From positions 86,064-150,063 of the forward strand of contig CAWDXE010000006.1 of assembly GCA_963806185.1 (NCBI GenBank): DNA of 64,000 nucleotides, written 5' to 3'. Positions 36,471 to 40,158 of the stretch are shown one piece after another. Under the pieces are notes generated by a model. The model was given only the letters and a program-made list of their open reading frames with translations, did not search any database and was not told the origin of the DNA. The position numbers and the translations under genes are program-made. Origin of the DNA: an uncultured candidate division Zixibacteria bacterium (GTDB lineage Bacteria; Zixibacteria; MSB-5A5; GN15; FEB-12). Position 1 is the first letter of the stretch. The number at the start of each line of letters is the position of its first letter.

Positions 36471-36524
36471 GCCGCAAAGAAGCGGTTCTCAGTTCGGCTT
36501 GGCAACAAGAGTTGTTGGGGGGGA

Positions 36525-36850
36525 TGTGCCGTCAGGCCCCCGTGCCTGACGGAATCCGTTGCGTCAGGTCCTGCGGCGATTCTTGTCGCCGTGTGACCTG
36601 ACGCCTCACCCTACTCGCCCTCACCCCAACCCTCTCCCGGAGGGAGAGCAAGCAAGAGGGAATCTGTAGGGCAGCATCGATGCCCGCCGAGGGCGGGCAG
36701 ATGCTGCCGGGGGGCCCATGAATTCCGAAAGATGGCAGCACCCGCTCGAAGACTCGCATCGGTGCTGCCCTACGTGATGGGTTCATTCCAATGGCCGGCG
36801 TACGTCTCGTGCGTCGGCGGGTGTGCCGTCAGGCCCCCGTGCCTGACGGT
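36525..36850. repeat. Mosaic REP/REPIN cluster
   Basis: Two GTCAGGCCCCCGTGCCTGAC copies, GTCCTGCGGCGATT..TCGCCGTGTGAC, CCCTCACCCCAACCCTCTCCC, a REPIN at 36666-36773 and TGGCCGGCGTACGTCTCGTGCG. Confidence 0.8.
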
Positions 36851-38493
36851 GGAGGAATGGGCAGCGTGTCGGGCCGAACTACATGCTGCCAAAGCCAAGA
36901 ATCAAACCATCTCACAATGTCACTACTGAAACGATGTGGATAAATGACTAAAAACAGTGGTACCCAATGAGGATGCTTCTTCAACATTGCAGGCACAGTA
37001 ATTCCACCGCATTCCTCAGCCATTTCCTGCAATTCCTGCCAGTCCATGGTGTATGGCGGTATGATGGTCGAGTTGTACCCAGTCGGTGTTCGCCACAACA
37101 GATATTGCCATGATTCATTAGGGTCGACTCGATGAAGCATAAGGTACGTGTAGAGCGGCCATTGCAGCTTCAGCTCACGTTTCCAGTTCATTCTTACGGC
37201 AAGATGCAATAGAGCTTCAGGAGTATAAGCGCTACCTTCGAAATTCTCGCTGATCTTCCCGTCAGCCAATCCGAGTTGAGAGAGCACGACAGACTCGCCG
37301 CTATAGTAAGGGGACGCCAAAGGGCATTTTGACCCCGGTTTGTTCGACGTGATTACAGCATCAAGGACACTCATAATTATTTGTTCGGGAGCTGGTGTAG
37401 AGTCTACCGTGCGAAGATACCAATAAGCCGCAACATACGACGAGACAGCGCCCTCCCCCCATAAAGACATTTCTCTCAGATGCGAGCGAAGGAACCTTTG
37501 TATCATTCCATCAATTTCTTCACTGCAATGTTCAAGTGATCTGTTCCAGATACCGAAAGCACTCAGAACACCAACCAGGAAGGTCACGCGCAATGTATAG
37601 AATGGCTGATCGGGGAGTGCATTGCCCTCCAATAAGTGATCTCTCTTTCCAATCTCTTCGATTAGATTTTCAAAAGACTCAAGTACATACTGCTCTACTA
37701 ATCGAAATGTGGAAGTCCAGTACTTCTGGGGGAGTTGATGTTGCTCAATGACCGCAGATATATAGGCCAAAAAGAACACCCACACTTGTATCTTGGCACA
37801 GTGGTTGTTCTTCTCCTCGTACGAGGCTGAAGCAACAGCTGTAATTAAGGCTGAACTAGCTATGGCGCGAAAGAAACTTGCTTTGGAGGGGCTTTTTTCC
37901 CTTTCATTGAGAAAGGGCATCGAGTAACTCAACAGCCGTTCGAACTTTTCAGGGGAAGGTTCATTATTTCCCTCCTCGAGGTAGAGTTCGCCCAATATTC
38001 GGAAATCGCGCAATTCGCTCGGAAGAAGCGACCGCGATAGCGCCAGAGTCATCGCCAAGAGTTTTCCTCGGGAAATGAGCTCAACCTGTCGCTCGGGAAA
38101 GCCCTTGTCGCGAAGACCACTATTAAAATTATTAATAGAGACTTGTATTTCTTCCTCGATGTCTGCGTTTACAACTAGGTAAGACCGATGCCAGCGAGCG
38201 CTCGCGAGACCAGGGTAGTTCACCTTCAGCATCACAAGATCCAACAGTTGTGATTCTGCTTCCCTCCAATCGTTTCTCGAAAATCGCTTGTTACTCGTGC
38301 TCTTGAGTTGGTACGCATGAATCTCGCCATCTGGGCTGACGCTAATCACGTCCTTGCCCTCCTCGAGGCCGGTATGCCGCGTGGAGTGAACAATTTCGTG
38401 TCCCTCGTTGATGAGCATGGCGCAGAAGGGCAACTGGTAACTTCGCTCTGTCGCACTATCCAACCAATTTTCGAGAAGCCTCTCTATCATCAA
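36829..38493 (-). CDS. Hypothetical protein with an N-terminal PD-(D/E)xK (Mrr/REase-like) nuclease domain and a helical C-terminal region
   Basis: E(RSYQ)...HTGLEEGKDVISVSPDGEIHAYQLK matches the E..D..QxK active-site pattern; AT-richer than the flanks. Confidence 0.75.
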   Translation of the reverse strand: MMIERLLENWLDSATERSYQLPFCAMLINEGHEIVHSTRHTGLEEGKDVISVSPDGEIHAYQLKSTSNKRFSRNDWREAESQLLDLVMLKVNYPGLASARWHRSYLVVNADIEEEIQVSINNFNSGLRDKGFPERQVELISRGKLLAMTLALSRSLLPSELRDFRILGELYLEEGNNEPSPEKFERLLSYSMPFLNEREKSPSKASFFRAIASSALITAVASASYEEKNNHCAKIQVWVFFLAYISAVIEQHQLPQKYWTSTFRLVEQYVLESFENLIEEIGKRDHLLEGNALPDQPFYTLRVTFLVGVLSAFGIWNRSLEHCSEEIDGMIQRFLRSHLREMSLWGEGAVSSYVAAYWYLRTVDSTPAPEQIIMSVLDAVITSNKPGSKCPLASPYYSGESVVLSQLGLADGKISENFEGSAYTPEALLHLAVRMNWKRELKLQWPLYTYLMLHRVDPNESWQYLLWRTPTGYNSTIIPPYTMDWQELQEMAEECGGITVPAMLKKHPHWVPLFLVIYPHRFSSDIVRWFDSWLWQHVVRPDTLPIPPPSGTGA

Positions 38494-39050
38494 AGTCCCT
38501 TCGTTTTTTGGCTATAAGTGCCTCGAATTGCTTCTTAATCTCCGGATCACTTTCAGACTCCACCATAATCTGCCTAAATCGTTCAGCCATTTGTGGCGCT
38601 GCTACTATTGTCGGCAGCTTGATTTTCCCGCTGCGATCGAAGTCCATTTCGACATTCTCTAGCATATCGAGGAAATCGCGAGGTCCAAAACTCTCCCGAC
38701 GAAATTGAAGGTCCTGCCCTTCTCATCGAGAAACTGCGAAATAGAAGAGAAGAAAGTGCGCTGCTGTTGTTCCGCTACCTGTTTCGCAATACTGTCGACA
38801 AGCTCCATCAACTTGGGTTGACCTCCTGCAATCAACTCGGACGGAGCGAAGGAGATTTGTCCGGACAATTTCATTAATGTGGGCTTTCATCGACTGCGCC
38901 GTCTGCCCGGATGACGCGCATCTTGTTCGCTTCAAATGCCTTCGATTCAGAGATGCCCAAAACTGATATGAATGTTCTCGCCCGCGTATAGATGAGCTTG
39001 TCGATGGAGCGGAGGACGACTTCCTTTGACTTGGGGTAGTCTGGCAACAC
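38456..39050 (-). CDS. Hypothetical protein of ~198 aa hidden by two indels (~38880, ~38695); possible truncated HK97/encapsulin-like fold
   Basis: GTG 39050 MLPDYPKSKEVV...IRADGAVDESP / LMKLSGQISFAPSELIAGG..KGRTFNFVG / ESFGPRDFLDMLENVEMDFDRSGKIKLPTIVAAP...DREASRKLVG*; overlaps the start of the nuclease gene. Confidence 0.65.
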
Positions 39051-39059
39051 GGCTTTACC

Positions 39060-39893
39060 CTACATCCTCTCCACGCACCCCGCGATCAGGTCACGAATTT
39101 CGGTTCGGTGCGCGAGGCTGTCCCGATCACATCCTGCAACGAGCACGGATGCATGTTGTCGGCCAGCCCCATATCGGTAATAATCGAGAACGCCAGATAT
39201 CTTGCTCCTCTGATGATGCGCCGCGATCACCTCCGGCACCGTCGACATCCCGACCGCGTCGCCGCCGATCGTCCGGAAAAACCGGTACTCCGCCGCCGTC
39301 TCCAGCGTCGGGCCGGTCAGCCCCACATACACGCCGGTCTGCAAGCGGCAAGTTTCTGCTCCAGCGCCACCTGCTTGGCGATCTCCTGATACTTGTGGTT
39401 GTAGACCTCGTACATGTCGGGGAAACGGTCGCCCCACTTGTCGTCGTTCGGGCCGATCAGCGGATTGCCGGGAAAGAAATTGATGTGGTCCTTGATCAGC
39501 ATGACGTCGCCCGCCTTGAAATTCGGGTTCATCCCGCCGGCGGCGTTGGACACAATCAGCGTCTCCATGCCGAGCATCTTCATCACCCGCACCGGAAACG
39601 CGATCTGCTGGAACGAATACCCCTCATAATAGTGGAACCGCCCCTGCATGCAGACCACCGGTTTCCCCTTCAGGTGGCCGAACAAGAGCCGTCCGGCGTG
39701 CGACTCGACTGTCGACACCGGGAAATGCGGAATCTTGTCGTACGACACCGTGCCGGTCATCTGGATACCGTCGACCAGCGACCCGAGCCCGGTGCCGAGG
39801 ATGATGCCGATCTGCGGTTTGAGTTTGATCTGCGATTGAATGTACGCTGGTGGCTTCGCCAAGCTGTTTGTGAATTTCTGCCCACGTCTGCAT
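39060..39893 (-). CDS. punA: Purine-nucleoside phosphorylase (several indels)
   Basis: [41 protein letters not shown] and [10 protein letters not shown] motifs spread over three frames. Confidence 0.9.
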
Positions 39894-39984: not shown

Positions 39985-40158
39985 CGGCCCTCACCCCAAC
40001 CCTCTCCCAGAGGGGAGGGGGAGGAAGATGCGCTCGTGGCGCACGGGACGTACGCCACGCACGGAATGCACTCCGCCCACCAATCATGTTCGGCGTTTGC
40101 CGTGGCCGGCGTACGTCTCGTGCGCCGGCTTGTAAGTCAGGCTCCCTGCGAGCCTGAC
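39985..40158. repeat. REP-like cluster
   Basis: CCCTCACCCCAACCCTCTCCCAGAGGGGAGGGGG, GTGGCCGGCGTACGTCTCGTGCGCCGGC and GTCAGGCTCCCTGCGAGCCTGAC. Confidence 0.75.

Follow-up and report, generated by a model that had tools for sequence, protein, structure and literature searches.

The locus described here raises the question of what function is encoded by an AT-rich insert of two overlapping genes in the genome of an uncultured Zixibacteria bacterium (assembly GCA_963806185.1, contig CAWDXE010000006.1, positions 86,064 to 150,063; these 64,000 nucleotides are called the window, and all coordinates refer to it). Both genes lie on the minus strand between punA, the gene for purine nucleoside phosphorylase, and a cluster of repetitive extragenic palindromic (REP)-like repeats; gene 1, the upstream gene, is broken into three reading-frame pieces, and gene 2 is intact. 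An earlier note, made from the letters of the window alone, had proposed a new anti-phage system in which a capsid-like protein is translationally coupled to a PD-(D/E)xK nuclease. The explanation at which the present analysis arrives, and to which we would give about an even chance of being correct, is that the insert is one instance of a two-gene cassette for anti-phage defence that is widespread, moves horizontally and is as yet without a name; this explanation is based on the conservation and co-inheritance of the pair, on the nuclease homology and motif of gene 2, and on the defence-island context of the pair in other genomes.

A conserved pair of overlapping genes

Gene 2 (36829..38493, minus strand) is an intact open reading frame (ORF) of 554 amino acids (aa) from a TTG start, and is present as a single copy in the genome; its true start is most likely the ATG at 38490, since this codon yields MIERLLENWLD, the beginning found in the homologues. 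Gene 1 spans 38456-39050 on the minus strand, beginning with a GTG 9 nucleotides (nt) past the punA stop and ending inside gene 2. The two genes overlap at 38456..38493 (minus strand), by 35 nt from the ATG or by 38 nt, the figure given in the earlier note, from the TTG at 38493; gene 2 is read in the +1 frame relative to gene 1, and an AGGGA Shine-Dalgarno-like motif stands just upstream of it. The GC content of the pair is 48.8%, compared to 57.0% for the rest of the window; values across 36900-39000 range from 0.43 to 0.50, those of the flanks from 0.57 to 0.65. The ORFs of the insert include no third gene, methyltransferase or NTPase, in agreement with the original description of an AT-richer stretch of just two genes between punA and a REP cluster.

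Among 8000 candidates scored, 222 homologues of gene 2 were found at E<=1e-3, with a length of about 540 aa; the closest of them was 40% identical, and all 222 were nameless and without a Pfam domain. When one genome was scanned for each species, 45 loci were obtained, whose carriers belong, by their record titles, to a dozen or more phyla; they include Poribacteria, Zixibacteria, Ignavibacteria, Bacteroidota, Acidobacteriota, Thermodesulfobacteriota and Calditrichota, as well as Hydrogenedentota, Chloroflexota, Spirochaetia, Alpha-, Beta- and Gammaproteobacteria and one Parcubacteria genome, with cultured carriers in Dechloromonas, Luteimonas, Massilia, Duganella, Geobacter, Stenotrophomonas, Algoriphagus and Roseomonas, among others. 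A gene 1 homologue was located directly upstream of gene 2 in all 45 genome loci (three copies are cut by contig ends); its stop fell inside gene 2 in 41 of them, with an overlap of 35 or 38 nt in 38 loci and of 29 nt in three, and the remaining four loci represent a divergent subfamily in which the genes abut. Within metagenomes, gene 2 followed gene 1 in 74 of 74 loci with at least 300 nt of downstream sequence, overlapping it as in the genomes; the search pattern lay in the overlap, and this set is therefore biased towards the pair. No third conserved gene emerged when all 527 ORFs of the loci were clustered, no family occurring in more than four loci. The pairwise distances of the two proteins were correlated across 38 loci (r=0.857; 0 of 2000 permutations reached a value as high), as is expected for a unit that is inherited together, and these counts bear out the pair as a conserved, translationally overlapping unit. 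At E<=1e-3, the gene 1 family comprised 2456 representative clusters; lengths in the top 150 were all about 194-257 aa.

The divergent subfamily (L042-L045) comes from Lewinellaceae, Thermodesulfobacteriota, Parcubacteria and Saprospiraceae, one of its carriers being a candidate-phyla-radiation genome; its gene 1 products measure 201-209 aa, with an MITDFP start and an SRKIVD end, and its gene 2 products are just 24-26% identical. In the overlap of the two genes, across all loci, the same nucleotides encode in two frames the most conserved stretch of gene 1 (R-E-x-x-R-K-L-V-G-stop) and that of gene 2 (E-R-L-L-E-N-W-L-D); each of these stretches may owe part of its conservation to the other. 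The window copy also contains a 17-nt inverted repeat, 88% complementary, that links 38461-38477 in the overlap with 38274-38290, 170 nt into gene 2; it may be due to chance, or may form an mRNA structure affecting the initiation of gene 2.

Within the phylum, the pair was found in 5 of 285 genomes; it was absent from all 107 other genomes of its own family, and from all 24 genomes of this family in a separate check. Its GC content was below that of the flanks in 40 of 44 loci, with a median difference of -5.7 points. Since the pair is sporadic in its phylum, has a lower GC content than its flanks and occurs in carriers across many phyla, its genomic record indicates a horizontally acquired, mobile unit. 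Gene 2 had no match among 72,556 plasmids and none among 50,697 phage records; a single match appeared in 2.9 million viral contigs (IMG/VR, L064), and no IMG/VR contigs with the gene 1 pattern were found. On the L064 contig, the vicinity of the pair contains no structural phage genes, and instead a superfamily 1 (SF1) helicase, a KAP NTPase and a TatD DNase; the locus has the look of a defence island. A search of the JGI metagenomes brought up nothing closely related to the window copy, and in an empty-site comparison only punA was syntenic in two relatives.

The predicted nuclease and its partner protein

The N-terminal domain of gene 2 (residues ~1-155; 38029..38493, minus strand) shows the motif arrangement of an Mrr-type PD-(D/E)xK nuclease, with E16, E44-x-G-K-D48 and Q62-L-K64; the E..D..QLK motif pointed out in the earlier note was thus correctly recognised, and its residues E16, E44, D48 and Q62-L63-K64 are invariant in the homologue alignment. 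When a profile of 120 gene 2 homologues was compared by hhalign with one built from 29 Mrr_cat domains of relatives, the match had a probability of 91.5% (E 8.8e-7, 123 columns), with D48 placed on the Mrr_cat D and Q62-x-K64 on the Mrr_cat QxK; as controls, gene 1 and the C-terminal domain of gene 2 each reached 0.2% against the same Mrr_cat profile. The catalytic residues are kept in 119 (D), 120 (Q) and 120 (K) of the 120 homologues. The Pfam model of Mrr_cat stayed below its threshold, with no match in the window and matches in 6 of 26 members at E-values of at least 0.0049; Mrr_cat is the sole Pfam family that recurs among these 26 gene 2 members, and it is found on 12-13% of members in the Atlas clusters of the gene 2 family. 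An hhalign comparison of full-length gene 2 with one Mrr protein gave nothing, and profiles at the domain level were needed. Because the Pfam hidden Markov model falls below its cut-off while the profile-profile match is strong, the N-terminus is best described as a predicted Mrr-type PD-(D/E)xK domain, with membership at the superfamily or remote level.

The remainder of gene 2 forms a C-terminal domain of ~400 aa (36829..38028, minus strand), whose conserved motifs include LWGEG, PYY and PHR; hhalign self-comparison revealed no internal repeat. No DNA-binding or modification-reading domain was recognisable in gene 2, and a search of gene 2 and 25 homologues at E<=1 found no P-loop or STAND family, except for one marginal NPHP3_N match in a single member. 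Both proteins of the pair are soluble and mildly acidic, with a median pI of 5.7 for gene 1. In three loci from metagenome-assembled genomes, gene 2 is split into two ORFs (L001, 432+144 aa; L004, 411+116 aa; L009, 255+236 aa), by either frameshift error or decay.

The structure of gene 1 was approached through an AlphaFold2 model of the homologue at locus L009 (pLDDT 87, pTM 0.65), which is 21-43% identical to the gene 1 pieces of the window. The model begins with a helix (residues 5-33), a hairpin (44-58), a short helix and a 33-residue helix (78-110), and continues with a helix (124-133), a short extended segment and two further helices (153-168 and 170-196); this succession of N-terminal helix, hairpin, long helix and helix-strand-helix agrees with the order of elements that had been guessed from the letters of the window. 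The model contains just two strands of five residues and is otherwise helical, without a P-domain sheet and with two long C-terminal helices. The structural alignments exceeding 130 residues were all to HK97-fold proteins, either encapsulins (9i8e, 7bcv, 9bhu, 6x8m) or capsids (9eg4, 7qof, 9in6, 9b40, 9ocb), with Z-scores of 6.2 or less, below the level that the tool treats as meaningful; the other 40 rows of structural matches aligned over 88 residues or fewer, mostly along one helix. The best match in BFVD was T7 gp10B (E 0.02, probability 0.96, TM 0.37), and in a language-model feature search with another homologue, phage major capsid clusters were the first named neighbours after the family itself (Atlas score 0.83), a result that is taken as a lead only. 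Foldseek found no PDB match for the model at E<=1e-3; hhalign of gene 1 against a nine-sequence Phage_capsid_4 alignment gave a probability of 0.08%, and one local hhalign match fell on a helix-strand segment that also aligns in capsid proteins. No capsid family appeared among the Pfam matches of 33 gene 1 members or among PHROG matches, profile searches of the PDB sequences, run for each of the two genes and for the C-terminal domain by itself, returned nothing below E 0.17, and no antitoxin, helix-turn-helix or DNA-binding family was found in gene 1. A YhcG_C/PDC-S02 match of one gene 1 piece (piece B, E 0.009-0.015) was dropped, as it was not seen in the intact homologues.

With 198 aa and only two short strands, the protein as modelled cannot be a complete HK97 fold. 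The likeness to HK97 proteins that the earlier note had suspected from sequence pattern did better than anticipated, yet stays weak: the order of elements, the long alignments, all to HK97-fold proteins, the T7 gp10B match and the capsid neighbours of the feature search speak for it, the low Z-scores, the empty Foldseek search of PDB and the hhalign result against it. The resemblance is weak but oddly specific, and the model would support a partial HK97-like architecture at most, with homology unproven. A more far-reaching interpretation is that gene 1 descends from a truncated, domesticated HK97-fold capsid or encapsulin protein and serves as a sensor or decoy for phage head assembly that releases an Mrr-type nuclease. 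Capsomer-type interfaces that have survived in gene 1 would let it engage the capsid, scaffold, protease or portal proteins of a phage; alternatively, the real capsid protein might displace gene 1 from the C-terminal domain of gene 2 and thereby release the nuclease. Since all scores are below significance and the fold is incomplete, we consider this interpretation unlikely. The mechanism put forward in the earlier note, a capsid mimic that senses or poisons head assembly and sets off the nuclease, is compatible with the data but speculative.

The gene 1 protein has to be pieced together in the window copy, where it is distributed over piece A (38874..39050, 58 aa from the GTG start, family positions ~1-56), piece B (38659..38874, 71 aa, positions ~60-125 including the long helix) and piece C (38456..38665, 69 aa, positions ~128-198, with the conserved RKLVG stop inside gene 2), all on the minus strand. 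In an alignment with 30 intact homologues, the three pieces together cover the ~198-aa family completely, from the MLPD start to the RKLVG end; the region of piece A is a tblastn match to the gene upstream in homologous loci, and piece C has tblastn matches directly before gene 2 in 36 of the 45 loci. The span of 595 nt plus two losses of one nucleotide amounts to 597 nt, or 198 codons and a stop, which is the modal length of the family. The earlier reconstruction of a ~198-aa protein interrupted by two indels, one of them a missing G in a run of G, is confirmed in this respect. One base is missing at ~38881..38883 (minus strand), in a CCC run (GGG on the plus strand) that was located by length-matching to homologues; another is missing at ~38695..38697 (minus strand), in a GGG run of the coding strand (CCC on the plus strand), located by length-matching and by a public contig. 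This contig of 151 nt, from a public sediment run at a depth of 2 that may or may not be the source sample, aligns without gaps to 38558-38694, differing at two positions; at the run of the second break, the loose end of 14 letters includes an extra base compared with the window and, by our reading of this loose end, restores the frame there. Part of the stretch was present in a single public run (share 0.07), whose high-identity contigs span 38404-38694 only; the first break and those of punA lie beyond these contigs.

The punA gene (39060..39862, minus strand), the upstream neighbour of the pair, is frameshifted two or three times as well; a single copy is present here, and relatives carry an intact gene of 277-342 aa. 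In the window, its reading alternates between frames, with shifts near 39350, 39210 and 39085. Approximately five indels are clustered in 38695-39350, and none was found in the 1.66 kb of gene 2 or in the neighbouring two-component genes. Indel noise throughout the genome was rejected as an explanation: genome-wide ORF-length statistics resemble those of two complete relatives, and the indels therefore represent a local cluster. For the breaks in gene 1, we clearly favour consensus error, local to the margin of an island that varies between strains, over decay, because each break is the loss of one base in a short run, the repaired gene has exactly the length of the family, its conserved residues are mostly kept, the contig of the public run is in frame at the second break, and the single-copy punA next door is also broken.

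No promoter-like site was found on the minus strand between punA and gene 1, and punA is probably co-transcribed with the pair. On the opposite side, the insert is bounded by the REP-like repeat cluster at 36519..36849 (no strand assigned); gene 2 ends inside a REP element that encodes its last ~15 residues. The REP units of 27 and 28 nt occur in 29 and 28 copies in the genome. A second cluster of the same elements, whose ORF artefacts read PLPEGEG/GRGLG, is found beyond punA at 39987-40129; the two clusters bracket the segment of gene 2, gene 1 and punA, and not the insert alone.

Defence context and rival explanations

The neighbourhood of the pair was surveyed in 42 loci, using the two nearest ORFs on each side (148 ORFs) and PADLOC models at E<=1e-15; L024 lacked flanks, L044 and L045 were not covered, and two ORFs lying over gene 1 were dropped. 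Matches were found near the pair in 16 of the 42 loci, generic in three (L001, L019, L034) and clearly defence-related in 13, which supports a defence-island setting. Restriction-modification genes were of type I (L004), type IIG/ISP (L013, L027, L030), type III (L031) and type II (L043); the other defence neighbours were SIR2-HerA (L007), a CBASS cyclase and effector (L012), Hma, Septu and HEC-01 genes (L011), HmaB (L023), DISARM/Dpd-like genes with HEC-05 (L017), an AriA/PtuA-like ATPase (L018) and PDC-S47/Abi_alpha (L033). Pfam annotation of the neighbours added toxin-antitoxin genes, integrases, transposases, a resolvase and phage lysins, as well as a STAND NTPase with restriction endonuclease (REase) and Mrr protein neighbours. 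In seven loci (L004, L013, L017, L027, L030, L031, L043), the pair is located directly downstream of a restriction-modification gene, in the same direction and 10-100 nt from its end; this adjacency may go beyond clustering within islands and point, for instance, to co-transcription or to a functional link with restriction-modification.

If the pair is indeed a defence cassette, gene 2 would be its effector, with the N-terminal Mrr-type PD-(D/E)xK domain acting as a DNA nuclease and the ~400-aa C-terminal domain most likely regulating the nuclease or binding the trigger. Gene 1 would be an acidic, soluble partner of 198 aa that is made in fixed proportion to gene 2 through translational coupling, and that probably, by binding gene 2, restrains or licenses its nuclease as long as no infection is sensed; the nuclease would then cut phage DNA, or all DNA in the manner of abortive infection. 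In its predicted architecture, gene 1 resembles the N-terminal two-thirds of HK97-fold capsid and encapsulin proteins, and may recognise phage head components or be recognised by them. What we infer here is that the two proteins bind each other and that the pair protects its host, and likewise the nature of the trigger and of the DNA that is cut.

Several observations weigh against this explanation. The case for a defence role is one of guilt by association; defence genes generally account for a few per cent of genes, and against this general figure, used in place of a matched control, 13 of 42 loci would be a clear excess. Around the window copy, the neighbouring genes serve housekeeping functions (a two-component system, methyltransferases, NUDIX, punA). 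The ~400 C-terminal amino acids of gene 2, two-thirds of the protein, had no Pfam, PDB-sequence or PHROG match, and neither fused nor longer forms of gene 1 were found, with the absence of a gene 1-gene 2 fusion being weak evidence. Should gene 1 truly be frameshifted, an intact nuclease without its partner would argue against gene 1 as an essential inhibitor. Finally, a name for the family may already exist in supplements or in model libraries released after PADLOC 2.0.0.

The same genes could also form a two-subunit restriction enzyme, type IV-like, modification-dependent or otherwise direct, in which the Mrr domain of gene 2 would cut foreign DNA directly and gene 1 would be the subunit responsible for specificity or assembly, without sensing of phage proteins and without cell death. 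Members of the Mrr_cat family are classically modification-dependent restriction enzymes, and the sole recognisable domain of the pair is Mrr_cat-like; the frequent position of the pair directly downstream of restriction-modification genes in the same direction, in the seven loci named above, and the lack of a methyltransferase or NTPase of its own would also fit such an enzyme. Yet the nuclease domain is N-terminal and no recognisable DNA-binding or modification-reading domain accompanies it, gene 1 is acidic and matches no DNA-binding family, and a strictly coupled partner of this kind would be unusual for Mrr enzymes; on balance, direct restriction appears unlikely. A toxin-antitoxin-like addiction module, with gene 1 as labile antitoxin and gene 2 as nuclease toxin, would stabilise its island without any dedicated anti-phage role. 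A small acidic gene that overlaps a larger nuclease gene downstream, the AT-rich and sporadic character of the pair, the tight co-divergence of its two proteins, and the toxin-antitoxin genes and integrases that often adjoin it are all consistent with such a module, but both proteins are far larger than those of typical type II pairs, gene 1 matches no DNA-binding or antitoxin family, true defence systems dominate among the neighbours, and no match was obtained among the plasmids; moreover, an intact gene 2 stands beside a broken gene 1, and the supposed toxin would be tolerated alone if the breaks are real. An addiction module is considered distinctly unlikely.

The resemblance of gene 1 to capsid proteins and encapsulins, both in structure and among language-model neighbours, leads to a further alternative, the machinery of a mobile element, relic or working, in which a capsid-derived protein and a nuclease would serve DNA processing, packaging or transfer in a satellite-like element. 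Here the surroundings of the pair are hard to reconcile with the proposal: its conserved surroundings include no further gene of phage, satellite or transfer type, the single match among the viral contigs belongs to the defence-island-like locus with KAP NTPase, TatD and SF1 helicase, neither the phage records nor PHROGs gave a match, and 198 aa are too few for a shell-forming HK97 fold. This alternative is regarded as highly improbable.

Comparison with known systems

The view of the earlier note that the pair is a candidate new system is consistent with the libraries searched. In PADLOC-DB 2.0.0 (2023), the window proteins gave no match for gene 2 and only values of E 0.009-0.04 for the pieces of gene 1; among homologues, gene 2 matched in 0 of 26, and gene 1 matched five different models, each marginally and in 1 of 41. 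Neither protein was matched in Pfam (2025 copy), NCBIfam 20.0 or PHROGs v4, the source names are all "hypothetical" except for one stray JGI name, and a literature search that covered the full texts of papers, exclusive of supplements, yielded no description of such a pair.

Known systems resemble the pair in separate respects. Type IV enzymes of the Mrr/Mrr_cat family (PF04471) correspond to residues ~1-155 of gene 2 in profile-profile comparison, with the catalytic D and QxK in register; gene 2 differs from them in that its nuclease domain is N-terminal rather than C-terminal and does not reach the Pfam cut-off, and in that it is combined with a 400-aa domain outside known families and with a constant, coupled partner of 198 aa. 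In Avs sensors with Mrr effectors, the Mrr domain of Avs4 is reportedly N-terminal to a large sensor region, and gene 2 is similar in having a predicted N-terminal Mrr-type nuclease and a large remainder that may act as a sensor. In contrast to Avs, the pair consists of two genes, with no detectable STAND or other NTPase and no C-terminal repeats; the capsid-like fold, if real, would reside in the host's own partner protein and not in the trigger. HK97-fold phage capsid proteins are known triggers of Avs-type systems, among them the capsid-sensing Avs7, Avs8 and Avs10 (PMC13581612). Compared with HK97-fold proteins of roughly 260-400 aa, gene 1 has 198 aa, two long C-terminal helices and no P-domain sheet. 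AbiE and the candidate PDC pairs of PADLOC share with the pair a small upstream gene that overlaps a larger effector gene, as well as AT-rich composition and sporadic, island-borne occurrence; unlike these modules of abortive-infection or toxin-antitoxin type, neither protein of the pair consistently matches the models of PADLOC-DB 2.0.0.

If the pair protects its hosts, it would constitute a widespread nuclease-based defence system without NTPase and without methyltransferase. If the capsid likeness of gene 1 reflects homology, bacteria would have recruited a viral structural protein into immunity, a mirror image of Avs, CapRel and Lit, the systems that sense capsids; the pair would provide a simple two-protein model for the silencing and subsequent release of an Mrr nuclease, and would be the first case of a defence system that uses a homologue of capsid proteins as its sensor. 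As a nuclease-effector defence pair, it is a known sort of system; its partner family, its C-terminal domain and the possible capsid ancestry of gene 1 are new.

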